A DNA stretch of 61,542 bases, counting the filler, from a bacterium (lineage in GTDB: Bacteria; UBA9089; CG2-30-40-21; SBAY01), in the NCBI GenBank assembly GCA_040757115.1. It is 5 parts of 5 records of this genome, joined end to end, with 100 filler letters (N's around TTAATTAATTAA, not from the genome) between each part and the next. Parts side by side here need not be neighbours in the genome. Positions count along the whole stretch, not along the records: positions 49,972 to 61,542 come from JBFLYA010000120.1; 4 more parts are not named here. One strand, written 5' to 3'. This document shows, one piece after another, positions 11,019-54,878 of the stretch. Positions within the stretch are counted from its first letter, which is position 1. Each line of letters opens with the position of its first letter. The translations under genes and the position numbers were made by a program. The notes under the pieces are model-generated. The model was not told the DNA's origin, searched no databases, and saw nothing but the letters and a program-made list of their open reading frames with translations.

Positions 11019-11885
11019 TTATCTCCACTCTAAGACCGCGGTTTCTTTTTTAGTCCCTTTATAAACATCTATCTGTTTAATTAGTTTTGATTCTACCTCA
11101 ATTGTTGGTGTTGGAGTGCCTGTTTTGATAACAATAGTATCTTTTGGTTTTTCTGGTGGTAAGTCAATTACTTCCGGTGGTGTTGCCCCATCGGTCCAGA
11201 CCAATGATTTAGAAGTTGGATGTCTAAGCGAGAGTCTAAGTTTTGAGGCTTTATCTGCGCCTAAAGCTAATTCTTCTGCCTCGCGTGGATAAACGGCTAA
11301 AGTCACGGTATCAAAAGCAAGGGGTGGTTTTTCCTCCGCCGTAACTTTCTTAGGTATAAATTGTTGACCCGTAGCTAAAACTATGGCTGATTGGACAATG
11401 GTCTTACTCACTAATTTTCCGGCAAAATCTGATTCAAATGTGCCAATAACATCTACCCTATCTCCTGGTGTGATTAAATAAGAAATAGCGCCCGGATTGT
11501 CAATCAGCAAAGTAATGGCTCTTCTTTCGGGTGGCACAATATACGCCAGCCTGCCAACCCCAAAGTAAATTTGTGAGGATAAAACTGGCGAGTTAGGATG
11601 GATGTTAACCTTTGCAATACCGCCCACCACACTCGTTAAAGAAGTAATTGCCTCTTTTGACACAGTTTCAGGTTCTAATTCCTTCAATGTCACCATGCCG
11701 GTATCAATCACCGTCTGAGCAGGAATTTCACCTACAGCAAAAACTACGCCGACCTTTTTCGGCTCTGGAACAGGTTCTTCTTTAACCACCGGCGGTTTTT
11801 TTTCTAAAGTCTTGAAATAAAATAATACCACCCCGCAGGTAATTAATCCTAATATAATCCCTATAATTATAAGCCTTGTACCCAT
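11019..11885 (-). CDS. cpaB: Flp pilus assembly protein
   Basis: N-terminal TM, SAF domain, RAITL...PGDRVDV...VTLAV..EA..L. Confidence 0.85.
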   Translation of the reverse strand: MGTRLIIIGIILGLITCGVVLFYFKTLEKKPPVVKEEPVPEPKKVGVVFAVGEIPAQTVIDTGMVTLKELEPETVSKEAITSLTSVVGGIAKVNIHPNSPVLSSQIYFGVGRLAYIVPPERRAITLLIDNPGAISYLITPGDRVDVIGTFESDFAGKLVSKTIVQSAIVLATGQQFIPKKVTAEEKPPLAFDTVTLAVYPREAEELALGADKASKLRLSLRHPTSKSLVWTDGATPPEVIDLPPEKPKDTIVIKTGTPTPTIEVESKLIKQIDVYKGTKKETAVLEWR

Positions 11886-11895
11886 TATCTTCCTC

Positions 11896-12200
11896 TCTCC
11901 TGAAAATAGACTACAGACCCTAGACTATAGACCAGGTAACCAATGAAAAGCAAGTTTATTTCCTCCTTAACAAAGGGGGTTAGGGGGTTGTCCTTCTCCC
12001 ATTTTCATTGCCCTTTGTGAGCCCTGGCTCATGTCCGTTTCCCCTGAAAATAGGTTATGGGACGCAGATTTTCGCAGATTATCAGGATGTATATTTAAAA
12101 ATCCTGAAAATCTGCGTTTATCTGCGTCCTATACTTTCCCGAACCACGAATCCCGAATCCCTTTTTTCGTATCTTAGTGATTTAGTGGCTGAATAGTTAC
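11896..12200 (-). repeat. Structured-repeat array X1 (full repeat 12001-12051, half repeat 11896-11907)
   Basis: Reverse complement ATTTTCAGGGGAAACGGACATGAGCC-AG-GGCTCACAAAGGGCAATGAAAAT. Confidence 0.8.
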
Positions 12201-12261
12201 GACTGATTCTATTATATCATAAACAGGTAATGGTTGTCAAGAAACTTTTGTAGGAAATTTT

Positions 12262-12724: not shown

Positions 12725-13183
12725 ACGAGGACGATGAAAATTAATAGGACGCAGATTTACAGGATTAACAGGATTTTAAAGAAAAACAAAACATCAAGAA
12801 ACAATAAGGAAATAACTATAGAAATACAATAATAAAAAATTAATTTTAATCCTGTTCATCTGCGAAAATCTGCGTCCCATAACCTATTTTCAGGAGAAAC
12901 CAGGTATAAACCTGCGGTTCACAAACGAGGATGAAAATTGAGCATAGAGATTAGAGATTGGAGATTAGAGATTAGCAAGAGTGCAGGTTCTAATTCACTA
13001 ATTCTCTAATCTCTAATTAACTATTTTCAGGAGAACCGGGCATGAACCTACGGCTCACAAAGGAAGATGAAAATAGTGATAGGAGATAGAAGGTAGGAAG
13101 TAAGGAGATAGGCGTGAGGAGTGATGTTTTCTTTACTTTCTACTTTCTACTCTCTACTTTCTACTTCCTATTTTCAGGAGAAA
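12725..13183 (+). repeat. Structured-repeat array X2 (full repeats 12886-12938 and 13023-13074, half repeats at both ends)
   Basis: Same consensus as X1 and X3; spacers of 144, 84 and 95 bp. Confidence 0.85.
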
Positions 13184-13185
13184 TA

Positions 13186-14352
13186 ATGACTATATTTCTT
13201 GAAGTAGGGCTAATTCTGATATTAGTCAAGATTTTAGGTGAATTATTTGAGCGGATAAAACTTCCTTCTATCTTTGGGGAAATCACCTTAGGCATAATTC
13301 TGGGGCCTGTTCTGGGTCTAATTATTCTTAATGATAAGACTTTTTCCGCAGCCATAATTAAACTTTTAGGTGAGATAGGGGCAGTATTTTTGTTATTTTC
13401 TATTGGGTTCACCCGTGTAGATTTCAAAAAGGTTACTGTATCTATAAAAAGGATTTTCCCGGTATCAATTTTCGGGGCGATGTTTCCTTTTTTAGCTGGA
13501 TTTTTTATTGGCTATATTTTTTTTAGTTCGGTAAAAGTGGCGTTATTACTCGGGACAGCGTTAGCCTCGACAAGTATTGGCGTAAGTGTTCGCACCTTAA
13601 TGGATGTAAAATATATTGCGACAATGGTAGGAGCAACTATTTTATTTGCCGCTGTTTTAGATAATTTCCTCTCGATGGGCACATTAGGGATAGTTACCGG
13701 AATTATCCAGAGAGAAAAGGTCTGGTATATTTCTATGGGAATAACCATTACCGAATTAGTCGGTTTTATCGCGGTGGTCTATCTAATGAGGAGATTCATT
13801 TTCCCTTTACTTACAAAATTAACGGATAAGATGATTGTTGAAGAAGCCACGCTGGGAATTATTATTGGCACGCTTTTTGTCTTTGCATACCTGACGCATA
13901 TCTTTGGGTTGAGTGTGATAATAGGTGCATTTTTGTTTGGGGCAGGAATATCAATCATCCCAAGATTAAAAACAGAGGTTGTCGTTCATAAGGTTAGAGG
14001 GATAGCCGATGGATTTTTTGTCCCATTTTTCTTCTTGAATATGGGGCTGATGTTTGATTTTAAAGGGATTGGGAATGTAGGGATATTTGCCAGCATCCTT
14101 CTTGTGGCACTAATTGTCAGTCAAATTATCGGTGGTTTCCTTGGAGGAAAAATAGGTAGGTTTAACTTTAAAGATTCCCTTATTATTGGCACCGCACTTA
14201 TCCCCAGAAATGAACTTGCCCTGGTTGTTTCTACCATTGGTTTAGAAATAGGGTTGTTAGGAAGTGAAGTCTTTTCGGCATTAATATTAATTTCATTAGT
14301 AACAACCATCATCACGCCTTTATTGCTCAGGTTAATAATTAAAGCCAGATAA
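13186..14352 (+). CDS. CPA2 (Kef/NapA-type) cation:proton antiporter
   Basis: Many TM helices; TSIGVS, FFVPFFF, IPRNE motifs. Confidence 0.9.
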   Translation: MTIFLEVGLILILVKILGELFERIKLPSIFGEITLGIILGPVLGLIILNDKTFSAAIIKLLGEIGAVFLLFSIGFTRVDFKKVTVSIKRIFPVSIFGAMFPFLAGFFIGYIFFSSVKVALLLGTALASTSIGVSVRTLMDVKYIATMVGATILFAAVLDNFLSMGTLGIVTGIIQREKVWYISMGITITELVGFIAVVYLMRRFIFPLLTKLTDKMIVEEATLGIIIGTLFVFAYLTHIFGLSVIIGAFLFGAGISIIPRLKTEVVVHKVRGIADGFFVPFFFLNMGLMFDFKGIGNVGIFASILLVALIVSQIIGGFLGGKIGRFNFKDSLIIGTALIPRNELALVVSTIGLEIGLLGSEVFSALILISLVTTIITPLLLRLIIKAR

Positions 14353-49579: not shown

Positions 49580-49748
49580 TTAATTTATCTATTTGTCAGT
49601 CAGGTGCTATAGCAGTTATTAGTCAAAATTTTACTCACAGTGGATAAGTAAAAAATCCCAAATCCCAAGCACCAAATCTCAAATAAACACCAAATTCCAC
49701 ATACCAAAAAGCGAATTAGAGATTAGTGAATTAGAGATTAGATCTTAT

Positions 49749-49971: not shown

Positions 49972-50674
49972 AGGATGATGAAAATGAATAGCACACGGAT
50001 GACACGGATCGGATGAACGCTGATTTTATTTATTTCAGTTTTTTTCGTGTTTATTCGTGTTCATTCGTGGACTATTTTCAGGAGAAACGGTCATGTCCCG
50101 CTGGGGCACAAACGAGGATGAAAATGTGTGGAGTGCGGTAGCGAGCTTTCGCTTTCTTCGGACAAAGCGAAAGCAAGCTTTCGCACTCCAAAGGCTATTT
50201 TCAGGGGAAACGGGCATGTCCACAGGGTGGACACAAATGAGGATGAAAATAGTAGGTAGGAGATAGAAGGTAGGAGGTAGGCTTAAGGAGTGATGTTTTC
50301 TTTACTTTCTACTTTCTACTCTCTACTTTCTACTTCCTCATTTTCAGGAGAAACGGTCATGAGTCTGCGACTCACAAATGACGATGAAAATAAAGGAAGG
50401 ATGCGGGCGGGAATGCTGAAGTCGAGCAACGCAGGCTAAAGCCTGCGGCTACCAGCCTTCTCGAGTCCCGAACCCTGAGTCCCGAGTCCCTATTTTCAGG
50501 AGAAACGCTCATGCCCACAGGGAGTGGGCACAAAGGAAAATGAAAATTAAGGGACTCGGGGCTCGGGATTCGGGAATAAAAAATCCCCTAACCCCTTAAT
50601 CCCCCGCCAGCGGGGAGATAAAAAAATAAAAATCTGTGTAATCTGCGAAATCTGCGGATTATTTTCAGGAGAAA
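49972..50674 (+). repeat. Structured-repeat array X3 (full repeats 50074-50125, 50197-50250, 50340-50391, 50492-50547; half repeats at the ends)
   Basis: Conserved flanks, covarying inner hairpin, spacers of 88, 71, 89, 100 and 113 bp. Confidence 0.9.
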
Positions 50675-50778
50675 TCTCTTACAGAACTTTCTCCTTGACA
50701 AAAGAATAAAAATTTGATATTCGTTACCTAAAAGAAGGATAAATTATGTTCCCCAAAGAAAGACTCAAAGAAATCATA

Positions 50779-51173
50779 TAGCGGTTATTAACTGGAAGTT
50801 TACATAGGATAATACCCATAAATAAGGCATGAGAATAATCGTTCCGTTAGGAACATAATATCGGTAGAAATAGATAGACAAATCAATACAGTTCCGTAGA
50901 TGGTAGAAAATTTATGGAAAGCCATTTACCGATATGTTGTCCCTATGGGACATTAAATGAAGGATGAGGTAGAATTTTTCACATTCCATTTTTTCCCATT
51001 TTATCATAAGAAAATGGAGGAAGGCAAGCCAAATGGACATAATTGTCTAAAAATATAGAGAGTTATAGCCCTAATTTGACATAGTGTAGTAATGGTTCAC
51101 GCATAACTTGTTAATTCACTACGAGTAGTTACGAGTATTTAATTCTAAGTAAAGTTTTGAATAATAACTGCTA
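50779..51173. mobile_element. TA-targeting MITE, same family as 31815-32086
   Basis: Same ends and TA duplication, different interior. Confidence 0.85.
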
Positions 51174-51190
51174 TAAGCACTATTTCCCTG

Positions 51191-51302: not shown

Positions 51303-51632
51303 GTGATGAAAGTTATAAAAGGTGTATTAGAAGAAGAGCTTGAAAATTCTCTTAGAATGAAAGAAAAATATGAGGATGTTCTGTCGAATTTGTCCAAAGG
51401 AAGCCTGGTGGAAAAAGAGATAAAGGGACATAGATATTACTATATAGTCTTGAGGGAACATGGAAGGGTCAAGTTTATCTACAAAGGTAAACTTTCTAAA
51501 GAAGAAATAGAGAAATACCTTGAAATTAAAGAGTTAAGGCTTAAATATAAAAAGCTTCTTTCCCAGGTGAAAAAGCAAATAGCCTTTTTAGAGAGGTCAT
51601 TAAGTGGAAAAGAAATACGAGCTGTGTCTTGA
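51303..51632 (+). CDS. Small basic protein, putative regulator/antitoxin
   Basis: KGSL..K.IKG.RYYY...KFIY.G pattern; overlaps the next gene. Confidence 0.65.
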   Translation: MMKVIKGVLEEELENSLRMKEKYEDVLSNLSKGSLVEKEIKGHRYYYIVLREHGRVKFIYKGKLSKEEIEKYLEIKELRLKYKKLLSQVKKQIAFLERSLSGKEIRAVS

Positions 51633-52281
51633 AGTATTAAGAAGACTCCAAAAAGAAAGGGTGTTAGAAGAGATTATAATTGTTGGTAGTTGGTGTATCT
51701 ATTTTTACCGGGAATATTTCTCAAAGACTAACTATTCTTCTTCTATAAGGACAAGAGACATTGACTTTTTGGTTCCTCTGCCATTACACCTTAAGAAAAA
51801 AGTAGATATCCCTGAACTATTGAAGGATATGGGTTATATTATCGACTTTCATAGAAGTGGTTATATCAGGCTTTTGCATCCGGAACTCATCATAGAATTT
51901 TTAGTGCCGGAAAAAGGCAGGGGAGTGGATAAACCATATCCTTTACCCCAGTTAGGGGTGAATGCTCAAAGGCTACGATTTTTGGATTTTCTTGCACAGA
52001 ATACAATAGTCCTTAAAACAGAAGAACTCACTTTAAATCTTCCCCATCCTGCTGCCTTTGGATTGCATAAACTTATTGTTTCTTCCCGAAGAACTAAAGA
52101 GGAGAAACGAATCAAAGAAAGGGAAGAAGCAGTAAAGGTCTTAAATGCTCTAATAGACCAGGGTGAAGAAAAGTTGATAAAGGATTTGTTTGATTCTATG
52201 CTCGCAGGCTGGAAAAAGAAGATACTAAATATCCTGAAGAAATTCGGAGGAGAAAGGATATTAAACATCTTAGAGGAGTAA
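51604..52281 (+). CDS. Nucleotidyltransferase-fold protein (GSU2403/AbiEii-like)
   Basis: IVGSW...RTRDIDF...P.PAAF.LHKL. Confidence 0.75.
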   Translation: MEKKYELCLEVLRRLQKERVLEEIIIVGSWCIYFYREYFSKTNYSSSIRTRDIDFLVPLPLHLKKKVDIPELLKDMGYIIDFHRSGYIRLLHPELIIEFLVPEKGRGVDKPYPLPQLGVNAQRLRFLDFLAQNTIVLKTEELTLNLPHPAAFGLHKLIVSSRRTKEEKRIKEREEAVKVLNALIDQGEEKLIKDLFDSMLAGWKKKILNILKKFGGERILNILEE

Positions 52282-52314: not shown

Positions 52315-54878
52315 ATGAACCACAGTAAAGCATATCCATATTTAAAAGCAACCCTGGATGCATTGATTGAGGCGGCACCAGGTTGGGCAAAAGCTCCGGC
52401 TAAGTTCTGGTCCTCTTTATCCGAACAACTGAAGGATAAATCCAAAGAGAAAATCAAACAGTTAGAACAGGAGATAAAAGGGATTTCTAAAGATGATCTG
52501 GAGACAATGATCAAGGAGACTGGATGCGAGCAGAAGGAAGATATTGAGCTTATAATCGGAGCAGTGTCGTTAATCCCTGGACTTTGCCAGAAGATGGATT
52601 ATCGGTTTGATAGAGTAGATAGTGTGCTTGAGGAAATGAGCGGGAAGCTGGATGAACTTTTGAGGAAACCAACATCTGAAAAACCCCTCCAGTTCCCTCT
52701 TCCATCCAGCTTGCACAACCAAACCCCGCCTGAGCCGAATTTTGTGGGTAGGGTTGAAATGCTTAAGGCAATCACAGATTGGTATAAATCCCTTGAGGTA
52801 AAGATTGGGGCATTAGTCGGCTGGGGTGGGGTGGGAAAATCGGCATTAGTCAGAAAGTGGTTTGATAGCTTGAAAGAAAATAACATCCAGCCTGATGGCA
52901 TATTCTGGTGGGGATTCTATCGCAATGCCTTTCTTGAGCGTTTCCTTGAGGCGCTATTTGGTTATCTCTCCCAGGATAGATTTAAGCTTGATGACTACAA
53001 GACCTCCTGGCAGAAGATAGACAAAATAAAAGAGCTTCTTTTGGGAAGGGAATATCTCATTATCTTAGATGGACTTGAAGAGATGCAGAAATCACAAACA
53101 GGCGAAGAATTTGGTAAGCTGCAACATTCAGAGTTCACAGACTTACTCAAATACATTGCTGATGCAGATTTTAAAGGCTTATGCCTGATAACCACAAGGT
53201 TCCCTTTAACTGACATTGAGAAATACCCAAGCTATCAAAGGCTTGAGATAGAGGAGTTACTAAGAGAGGATACCCGGCTACTGTTTCAAAAGATTGGTGT
53301 AAGAGGAAAAGAAGATGAGATAGATACATCTGGGAAGAATTTAAAGGCCATACCCTAAGCCTTGTCCTCTTAGCAAATTATTTAGGCACGGGGGGTGATA
53401 TTAAGAGAGCAAAGGAAATACCGCCATTCTATTCTGACCAAGAGGCAGGTGGAAAGGCACATAGAATCCTCCTCTGGTATGATAAGCAATTAAATGAAGA
53501 ACAAAGAGACTTTATGAAGATATTCTCTTTATTTAGAGGTGCTGTCTCGGAAAGGGAGTTTAGGGAGGTATTCCAAACCAGGGTAGATTTCCATTTCCAG
53601 AGAATGGTAGATAACCTTTGCCAAAGAAGGCTCATTACCAAAGGCTCTGATAATACCTACACCACCCATCCCTTAATCAAGGGCTACTTTGAGTCTATAT
53701 TTGATAAAAAAGAAAAGAAGCTAACCCATAAGGCAATCTATGAATACTTTGGAAAGATAGCAAAAGATAAACCAGAGACCTTAGAAGAGATGCAGCCTTT
53801 GTTTGAGCAGGTGCATCATGGATGTTCTGCCAGGCTTTATGATGAGGTGTGGAAGGATGTTTATCGGGATAAAATTGGAGGGTATCCATGCGGATATAAA
53901 CTCCAACATAAGCTTGGTGCCTGGGAGACCGACCTATCCCTTGCCAGAACCTTCTTCCCGGATGGTAACCTTTCACAGATGCCGCAGGTAAGTGAGAAGA
54001 GCGACCAGGGCTGGTTGCTCAATGAAGCAGGACTGGCACTTCTTTCTACAGGACGGCCAAAAGAGGCAGAAGAACCATTGAAAACAGCAATCGGGTTATA
54101 TGTTGAAGACAAAGAACTTGCTTATGCCTCTGCAGGTTATCAAAACTTGGCTAACCTTCAGTTTCGAGTAGGTAGGCTCAAGGAGGCAGATGAGAGTGCA
54201 AAAAAGGCACATGATGTAGCAGAGAAGGCAGGGTCTGAGAAGAATATCCGCAATTCAAAAGCCTATCTTGCCTGGATACTTCATCTTGCGGGCAAGGATG
54301 AGGAGGCAGAAAAGGGGTTTCAGCAGGCAGATGAGCTTCAAAGAAAGATCAGTGGGGATCGGTTTTACAGTATAACTGGAGTTTTCTATGCTGACTTCCT
54401 CCTCTCAATCAAGCAGATTGATGAGGCTTTTGAACTTACCAAAGCAAACCTTGAGATCTGCCAGAGGAATAATTTTGTAAACAGCATCTCCCGCTGTCAC
54501 CGCTGCTTAGCTGCCATTGAAAGGCTAAAGGGAAACCAGAAGGAAGCCAAGGCCCATCTTCAGCAGGCCCTTGAGATTGCCAGAAAGGTTGGTATGCCTT
54601 ATCTTGAAATAGAAGCCTTGCTTGAGTTGAGCAGGTTGTGGTTGGATATGAAGAAATATAAAGAGGCTATCTCTCAGGCAAACCAGGTCCTGAAGCTATG
54701 TGAAAGAACAGGCTTTTTACTCTACGAACCCGAGGCAGAGCTAATCTTAGCCAGGGCATATTTATCCCAGGGAAACCTACAGGAAGCAAAACCCCTTGCC
54801 CAATCATCTTACGAAAAAGCCAAAACTATGGGTTATTATTGGCCACAAAAGGAGGCAGAAAGGATTTTTAAAAAATGA
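52315..54878 (+). pseudogene. STAND NTPase-TPR (NLR-like) protein split by a 1-nt frameshift near 53326
   Basis: FVGR, GWGGVGKS, LIILDGLE, LITTR; continues in another frame as IWEEFKGHTLSL...HPLI...TPR repeats. Confidence 0.8.

Follow-up and report, generated by a model that had tools for sequence, protein, structure and literature searches.

Arrays of structured repeats at bacterial gene starts as probable head-to-tail insertions of gene-less IS110-family miniatures

Background

The stretch of DNA analysed here (the window) is 61,542 nt long, comes from the bacterial assembly GCA_040757115.1 and consists of five contig pieces of ~12.4 kb each with N linkers between them. On three of these contigs a structured repeat alternates with short variable spacers, or cargos, in arrays that an earlier reading of the DNA (the original prediction) took either for an integron-like system with an unknown recombinase or for the head-to-tail junctions of a self-targeting element. 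We present evidence that favours the second of these possibilities: the arrays are probably head-to-tail insertions of non-autonomous, gene-less miniatures of an insertion sequence (IS) of the IS110 family. Both this family and its RNA-guided mechanism are already known.

For comparison we used 24 metagenome-assembled genomes (MAGs) of the phylum, five of which make up one family, and the assembled contigs of three public runs, all from one groundwater study; the contig-2 stretch of the window is present in two of these runs and next to none of it in the third. The nearest genome used, G001, has 28% of sampled 31-mers in common with the window, and for two genes the proteins of G001 and the window are 98-99% identical. 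A census of G001 arrays covered 83 stretches (330 kb), and 37 distinct repeat copies (7 from the window and 30 from G001) were aligned and used to build a covariance model.

Results and discussion

Three arrays in the window

The contig-5 array lies on the plus strand. The contig begins within the left end of the first unit, whose 3' part, ..GATGAAAAT, occupies 49972..49985 and is followed by cargo 1, an 88-nt non-coding hairpin with short-repeat arms (49986..50073). The first junction repeat (50074..50125) comprises the right end ATTTTCAGGAG at 50074-50084, the crossover AA at 50085-50086 and a left-end hairpin with the stem TGTCCC/GGGGCA. Beyond cargo 2, a 71-nt hairpin whose 27-nt arms are 85% complementary (50126..50196), a second junction repeat (50197..50250) again combines right end, AA and left end, here with the stem TGTCCAC/GTGGACA. 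Cargo 3 (50251..50339) is an 89-nt hairpin of the TACTTTC-heptamer family, which is also found at 13075-13169 and many times in G001. It is succeeded by a junction repeat with the stem TGAGTC/GACTCA (50340..50391), cargo 4, a 100-nt hairpin (50392..50491), a junction repeat with the stem TGCCCAC/GTGGGCA and the 3' box AATGAAAAT (50492..50547), and cargo 5, a 113-nt hairpin module (50548..50660). The array closes with a terminal right end, ATTTTCAGGAG plus AA (50661..50673), and then gives way to unique flanking DNA without a long open reading frame (ORF) start; this right flank leads into another abundant repeat, and no orthologous locus is identifiable.

The contig-2 array, likewise on the plus strand, opens with a truncated left-end remnant (GAGGACGATGAAAAT, 12727..12741), which is followed by a 144-nt hairpin cargo of the GGACGCAGAT family (12742..12885), a degenerate junction repeat in which ATG has become ATA (12886..12938), an 84-nt hairpin of the GAGATTA-heptamer family (12939..13022), a further junction repeat (13023..13074) and a 95-nt hairpin of the TACTTTC family (13075..13169). 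At 13170..13188 the terminal right end ATTTTCAGGAG and AA (13181-13182) are followed by ATA and then by the ATG (13186) of a cation-antiporter-like gene, and the Shine-Dalgarno of this gene is supplied by the terminal right end at 13170. In the public-run contigs many different continuations diverge directly after 13182/13183, i.e. past ATTTTCAGGAG-AA, which fits a crossover position at AA.

On contig 1 the array is on the minus strand. Its terminal right end (11907-11896), GAGGAAGATA and the ATG (11885-11883) of the gene MGTRLII.. together occupy 11883..11907, and are preceded by a 93-nt cargo module (11908..12000), a junction repeat with the stem TGAGCC/GGCTCA (12001..12051) and partial cargo modules that form a ragged left edge (12052..12165). 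A sigma-70-type promoter that agrees with the consensus at 12/12 positions (12211..12240, minus strand) stands before the array, which thus lies between promoter and start codon.

All seven full repeats and the three terminal half-sites of the original prediction are found at their positions, on three contigs given the five-piece layout, with the inner stems that it listed and with spacers of 71-144 nt between repeats. The terminal half-sites, ATTTTCAGGAGA, are at 11896-11907 (minus), 13170-13181 and 50661-50672. The 17-mer ATTTTCAGGRGAAACGG, which forms the head of the repeat, has 11 matches at up to three mismatches, against a mean of 0.45 and a maximum of 2 in 100 shuffles. A search against Rfam gave no match across the whole window at the gathering score.

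The repeat is a junction of two unit ends

The 52-nt repeat is a junction and not one element: it joins the right end of one unit, ATTTTCAGGRG, through the crossover AA to the left end of the next. The left end is AC-N3-5-CATG followed by a hairpin of 6-7 bp and variable sequence and by CACAAA..GATGAAAAT, and one unit spans from just past one crossover AA to the next AA. The earlier suggestion that the shared half-site marks a fixed crossover point is thereby supported, with the crossover at AA. There are no inverted repeats at the very ends of the units, and sub-terminally there is the pair ATTTTCA/TGAAAAT, of 7-8 bp. The outer stem of the repeat, which had been called invariant and has no variation across the 37 aligned copies, is this pair of sub-terminal inverted repeats; being without variation, it is uninformative on pairing, either way. 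The inner hairpin is the left-end structure. As had been proposed, it keeps its pairing while its sequence changes: three of its five pairs vary on both sides among the 37 copies, with the pair types AU/CG/UG/UA, GC/CG/AU and CG/UA, and the number of double-change cells is 38, compared with 13.7 ± 2.8 upon shuffling (0/500 shuffles attain 38). When the 3' partner is slid along as a control the pairing is lost. The repeat ranges in length from 50 to 57 nt and several copies have ATA in place of ATG; these two features rule out that the repeats encode small peptides with their Shine-Dalgarno and ATG.

The unit ends are those of an IS110-family element

In G001 the repeat ends are associated with a larger element. 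Ten contig ends with 'tttgcttgaatt..' all carry one left-end variant (nine identical, one with a single change), and ahead of them there is differing cargo, with R being A in six and G in four. At the other side, seven contig ends with '..aattacaacaacttacatac' ('..acttacatac') all finish in ATTTTCAGGGG, with R = G in 7/7, and past them lie different left ends and cores or, in one case, directly a gene start. These ten left and seven right contig ends are the termini of a multicopy element standing where a single unit would be. They show that the core is part of the element's left end, with which it travels, and that the crossover is 3' of GGRG. The end of another multicopy element (..agaggg TTGGACCTATTAACTCCAG..) was seen at no fewer than 13 G001 contig ends in varied contexts (L129-L137; L123 1590-1707), once directly after an IS110-type left end.

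A full-length version of such a unit is present on the metagenome contig L156, where the order is a short unit, ATTTTCAGGGG-AA, the core, an ORF, a non-coding stretch of ~215 nt, ATTTTCAGAGG-AA and then unique DNA. The left bound of the full-length unit reads ATTTTCAGGGG-AA-AC..hairpin..GATGAAAAT, as in the short units. Its ORF matches PF01548 (9e-31) and PF02371 (3e-10), i.e. it is a DEDD transposase, and its best PDB match is the IS621 transposase (1e-10). AA follows GGRG at both L156 junctions and in the G001 copies, and the flanks diverge immediately past AA, with no long target duplication. The G001 contig C572 starts in the last 14 codons of a transposase gene, which are succeeded by a homologue of the L156 non-coding region and then by a four-unit array. 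[quoted passage not shown]

Enterobacterial BIMEs and the dRS3-flanked NIMEs of Neisseria are intergenic mosaics in which short structured repeats alternate with a limited range of variable modules, and the mosaic modular arrays described here resemble them. They differ in that for the present units the transposon ends are defined and the transposase family can be identified, and in that these units are co-oriented and tied to gene starts. The resemblance nevertheless raises the alternative that the repeats are host-owned, REP/BIME-like or NIME-like sequences spread by another agent, e.g. a RAYT-type Y1 transposase, with the IS110 element only targeting them. That the miniatures are vastly more numerous than the visible IS would accord with this, as would the nine Y1_Tnp matches in G001 and the fact that IS110-family elements often target repetitive elements (PMC11208160), IS621 and ISPpu9 targeting REPs. 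However, the core is one variant in all 10/10 left ends of the IS although the cores of resident arrays vary, which implies that it moves with the IS, and in a relative with about 50% identity (see below) the copy boundaries put the homologous CATG-hairpin inside the IS. Moreover, the 5' half of the repeat was found in the retrieved flanks of 0/6 Y1 transposase loci examined, and a Y1 (IS200-like/RAYT) transposase was accordingly rejected as the mobiliser. We consider host ownership of the repeats unlikely.

Putative guide RNA and related elements

The non-coding region of L156 includes two segments, AGGGGAAAC and CAGAGGAAAT, which equal its own left (CAGGGG-AA-AC) and right (CAGAGG-AA-AT) junctions, and that of C572 has AGGAGAAAC and CAGGAGAAAT at places homologous to those of L156. 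These putative guide segments are 9-10 nt long and are embedded in a scaffold of the form ..TGGTGG..ACCCCG.A-guide-CTG... A consensus fold, weak as it is drawn from two sequences, places both segments on the 3' sides of internal loops. Rfam has no match on L156 1-1800 at E up to 1.

Relatives of the element were found in IMG/VR contigs, with transposases that are 49-51% identical and with boundaries that are set by several copies. Their non-coding RNA aligns to those of L156 and C572 over the TGGTGG, ACCCCG.A and CTG blocks, and the segments at the guide places, AAAATAAAC and ACAGAAAAA, equal their own junctions CAAAATAAA|C (left half of the target) and CACAGAAAA|A (right end). The two segments hence change with the DNA sites in three lineages, as is expected of the left target and left donor guides of a bridge or seek RNA (PMC11208160, PMC11187229). 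The left end of the relatives also has a covarying hairpin just inside, after AAAC-AATCATGAC, where the present elements have AAAC-NNNCATG-hairpin; its stems are AGTCCCACCC/GGGTGGGACT in one version and AGTCACACCC/GGGTGTGACT in another. On L172 (2235-5924) at least three full-length related elements stand head to tail with the junction ..CACAGAAAA|CAATCATGAC.., a natural case of insertion beside a resident copy.

Abundance, cargos and absence of coding cassettes

A recurrence of the repeat outside the assembly of the window, which had been left to be checked, is borne out by the covariance model, with at least 150 copies in G001, 30 in G009, 10 in G008, two in G011 and one in G010, these being all five genomes of the one family. 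Single matches were found in three genomes outside the family, and none in 16 of the 24 phylum genomes. A 15-mer search of G001 gave 163 matches at no more than one mismatch (reversed control, 0), many of which are ~110 nt from contig ends, indicating that the G001 assembly breaks at these repeats. Scans of public genomes and metagenomes with a strict pattern added a handful of contigs only, and a metagenome scan with the IS left-end pattern gave no match.

The G001 census comprises 97 clusters of 1-7 right-end sites and 106 cargos, which measure 39-160 nt save for one of 426 nt. The cargos represent about ten recurrent long-hairpin families that are common to different arrays. The cargo hairpins, both in the window (49986-50660, 12742-13169) and in G001, are made of short tandem repeats, mostly heptamers (TACTTTC, GAGATTA, CCCGAGT), and a complementary repeat forms the second arm, often via G-T pairs on the sense strand. 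In a family of 39-nt cargos the last ~21 nt are common to the right end of the IS at 18/21 positions by our own count, and against a 29-nt right-end pattern two copies have two mismatches and a third has one; judged from this shared sequence, the family looks like an internal-deletion derivative of the IS. The G001 arrays in L064, L082 and L098 end in one further sequence (ATCC(T/C)CCATTTCA(C/G)TGAC..), possibly another abutting repeat family.

This inventory bears on two alternatives. If the arrays were integron-like, their repeats would be folded single-stranded DNA sites acted upon by a dedicated integrase-type recombinase and their spacers would be cassettes, a notion to which the fixed crossover, the co-orientation, the variable but paired stems and the shuffling of unit content between near-identical strains all lend themselves. 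Yet none of the cargos is coding (0/106), so that the idea that spacers might contain whole genes fails; the GTTRRRY/RYYYAAC cores are absent from the repeat, as had been noted in setting it apart from attC; dozens of arrays are scattered at gene starts with no single platform, and no platform gene lies beside arrays in the stretches examined (no search aimed at IntI was made). The ends are accounted for by a recombinase of a known family, the IS110 DEDD family, in place of the unknown one that the integron-like version had called for, and we regard that version as highly improbable. Still less credible, in our estimate, is a CRISPR-like or TIGR-like guide array: conserved repeats do alternate with variable spacers, but the spacers are few recurrent hairpin families common to arrays, the arrays are short (1-7 units), number in the dozens and lie at gene starts, and the centre of the repeat varies and has no Rfam match. 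The earlier exclusion of CRISPR is therefore upheld on these features, no search aimed at cas genes having been made.

Insertion at gene starts and rapid turnover

The co-orientation of units within arrays extends to the genes that follow: every unit points as the downstream gene does. The final half-site is usually a few bases before the start codon, and the first unit is without ATTTTCA. In the G001 census 35/59 array ends have the start of an ORF (at least 60 aa) no more than 20 nt further on, as against 1994/20000 random positions, and on this right side the native spacer and start codon come after the GGRG-AA of the element, at a modal distance of 4-5 nt past GGRGA. The census yielded 127 distinct left ends, 87 of them behind a full right end and 40 at the left edges of arrays. 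At these 40 edges the sequence before AC is an exact GGRGAA in 24 (by our own count 23 GGAGAA and one GGGGAA), agrees with it at five or more of six positions in 11 and does neither in five, and ATTTTCA is there at chance level only. At internal junctions R is G in 56 and A in 36, a distribution that differs from that of the edges (Fisher p = 4.5e-6, with edge counts entered as 22 and 2). The GGAGAA of the left edges indicates that the edge retains the native Shine-Dalgarno.

Array content changes quickly. Upstream of the antiporter gene (contig 2) the array content is wholly unlike that in G001, and G009 has no array there. Similarly, the promoter of the MGTRL gene is present in the orthologues of four related genomes; in G008 and G011 the array is missing, and the remaining two carry arrays whose content is not the same. 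Here, too, window and G001 differ wholly. The orthologues without arrays are from other genera. Hence, the arrays are recent and fast-changing insertions into 5' leaders, and not conserved leaders.

These observations also bear on the proposal that the arrays are selected cis-regulatory RNA leaders, for instance a ribosome stand-by site or a CsrA-like sponge, with mobility being secondary. The location on the sense strand, past the promoter and ahead of the start codon, the two GGRG boxes per unit between hairpins and the fact that no terminator-like sites on the sense strand were flagged within arrays could all be read in this manner, as could the greater stability of the sense-strand fold in 49/68 spacers. 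This strand asymmetry is driven mostly by one cargo family, and the fold therefore does not decide between RNA and DNA. Position and orientation of the arrays follow from target choice, and unit content is not kept between genomes with 98-99% identical proteins, with orthologues lacking arrays. Selection for a leader function is for these reasons improbable as the origin of the arrays, and an effect on expression is still likely, but as a consequence.

A model for array growth

We return to the reading of the arrays as head-to-tail insertions of gene-less IS110-family miniatures, which we consider probable and which the IS110-type ends, the L156 unit and the putative guides jointly favour. Under this model the transposase and its bridge or seek RNA would join the junction of a circular donor (ATTTTCAGGRG-AA-AC..) to a near-identical target by recombination. 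Each inserted unit would recreate the target at its right end and thereby permit the array to grow, tandem accumulation being due to the resemblance of the right end to the left half of the target. Native ribosome-binding sites would serve as seeds for arrays, since their GGAGAA corresponds to the target's left half and would thereby pair with half of the target guide; for IS621, insertion off target at sites that match by half is reported (bioRxiv 10.64898/2026.08.31.748434). The unit would insert between the Shine-Dalgarno and the start codon, and its right end would bring a new GGRG at native spacing, so that translation could continue. The covarying hairpin beside the crossover is a probable structural recognition feature, by analogy with the 'sequence-structure dual match' of ISPpu10, in which a stem-loop beside the base-paired target is a second specificity feature (bioRxiv 10.64898/2026.03.19.712850). 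As the units of the window share both ends of the IS, they should be mobilisable in trans: mini-IS with intact ends (ISEc11) can be moved by providing the transposase and the non-coding region in trans (PMC11187229), and the non-coding ssr9 module makes its own circles with the ISPpu9 transposase (PMC12288879).

Several observations weigh against this model. A frameshift within an A9 run (1120-1140) interrupts the L156 transposase; sequencing error, decay and programmed frameshifting are each a possible cause, and this frameshifted unit is the only full copy seen. With the L156 query, the window, the G001 stretches examined and the 24 phylum MAGs yielded no transposase of this lineage; the five family genomes gave one unrelated IS110 member only, with no repeat beside it, and a search of the five genomes with the right-end non-coding region of the IS gave C572 itself as the sole match. 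An autonomous partner in this organism is thus a deduction from contig-end fragments and one partial copy. The interiors of multicopy IS are often missing from bins, which we offer as an excuse for the absent transposase and not as evidence. No circles or excision joints were seen in the assembled contigs, which by their nature cannot display them. The putative guides were recognized by sequence in three lineages, and the other predicted loop halves have no convincing match. The guide RNA is downstream of the transposase gene (tnp) in L156 (1490-1612) and C572 and upstream of it in the relatives (L169 2335-2465), so that the RNA gene has moved between ends within one sub-lineage. The left inverted repeat is ~38 nt from the left end, and on the right the extension comprises 4 nt and the core. 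IS1111-type elements are described with sub-terminal inverted repeats of 7-17 bp, extensions of ~7 bp on the left and 3 bp on the right, and a long non-coding region downstream of tnp (PMC11187229); the left position seen here is far deeper than in these described elements. R is also linked to the length of the A-run at internal junctions of G001 (G with three A's 55, A with two A's 20, A with three A's 15, G with two A's 1), which free assortment around one fixed AA crossover does not predict. The linkage hints at two sub-lineages of the element whose guides differ slightly, which would explain it. Finally, the heptamer-repeat hairpins of the cargos fall outside what the model explains.

Comparison with known systems

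With integron attC arrays the present arrays have in common co-oriented units, structured and variable paired sites, a fixed crossover and a terminal half-site, and the units are probably excisable. Unlike integrons, they have no attC cores and no coding cassettes, lack an IntI/attI platform in the stretches examined, form many small arrays instead of one, and would depend on an RNA-guided enzyme of the DEDD type.

Mycobacterial IS110 members of the IS900/IS901 type are said to land, in one orientation, past the ribosome-binding site and ahead of the start codon, and we know of no miniature derivatives or tandem arrays reported for them. The hed ORF of IS900 is described as having neither a ribosome-binding site nor a start codon of its own (PMC8141618).

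The closest likeness is to IS110/IS1111 elements such as IS621 and ISEc11. By their descriptions (PMC11208160, PMC11187229), they share with the present element a DEDD transposase with PF01548 and PF02371, the absence of end-terminal inverted repeats, a short core (here AA) on each side, site- and orientation-specific insertion, a long non-coding region with segments that match target and element end, sub-terminal inverted repeats (here 7-8 bp) and, as predicted for the present units, movement of mini-IS in trans. In contrast to what is described there, the donor junction here approximates the target sequence, so that units stack head to tail; at least 150 gene-less miniatures are present in one genome, far above the visible full copies; the seed target is a Shine-Dalgarno; and the left inverted repeat is ~38 nt inside, with a covarying hairpin between repeat and crossover. 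ISPpu9/ssr9 of Pseudomonas putida similarly has a non-coding module with IS end sequences, located beside the IS or alone (PMC12288879), but it is portrayed there as one module type with few copies that goes into REP sequences, whereas here there are about ten cargo families, up to seven units and insertion at ribosome-binding sites. ISPpu10 provides a parallel in the stem-loop near its target, comparable to the hairpin that here keeps its pairing while varying in sequence, 8-9 nt from the crossover, where its role would be analogous; in the ISPpu10 account the stem-loop is part of a host intergenic repeat, whereas here it belongs to the element's own left end.

Other repeats and genes beside the contig-5 array

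Directly past the contig-5 array there is a ~400-nt repeat (50777-51175) with terminal inverted repeats of ~28 nt (TATAGCNGTTATTA..), an arm of which recurs at 49608-49635. It has 66 matches in G001 at 79-100% identity and looks like a second, unrelated MITE family. Further on, 51303-52281 and 52315-53358 hold a pair of small ORFs that overlap (109 and 225 aa) and a further ORF, which has a P-loop (GWGGVGKS) and the appearance of a STAND/NB-ARC protein.

Conclusions

Our search of the literature found no convergence of IS110 donor and target, no tandem swarm of gene-less miniatures and no choice and repair of ribosome-binding sites, though supplementary target tables might list similar sites. 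As bridge-RNA recombinases are in development as programmable genome-writing tools, natural cases in which the donor equals the target are informative, and the present one would illustrate self-targeting and array growth, the mobilisation of gene-less units in trans and the use of a crossover-adjacent hairpin. For the annotation of metagenomes it would explain hundreds of contig breaks at such sites and the transposase that is missing from bins.

More tentatively, and with a good deal of doubt, the system may be seen as a natural RNA-guided cassette shuffler, in which donor and target specificities have converged on ATTTTCAGGRG-AA-AC, the stretches between sites are excisable and re-insertable, and the 5' leaders of around a hundred genes, with their bearing on translation or mRNA stability, are variable by cell or strain. 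If true, a DEDD recombinase would here follow an integron-like logic, with non-coding regulatory cassettes as its substrates. It would be striking for a transposon to select the ribosome-binding site and yet to restore it by means of its own end, and such repair would explain how at least 150 copies can stand before genes in a genome of 4.7 Mb.

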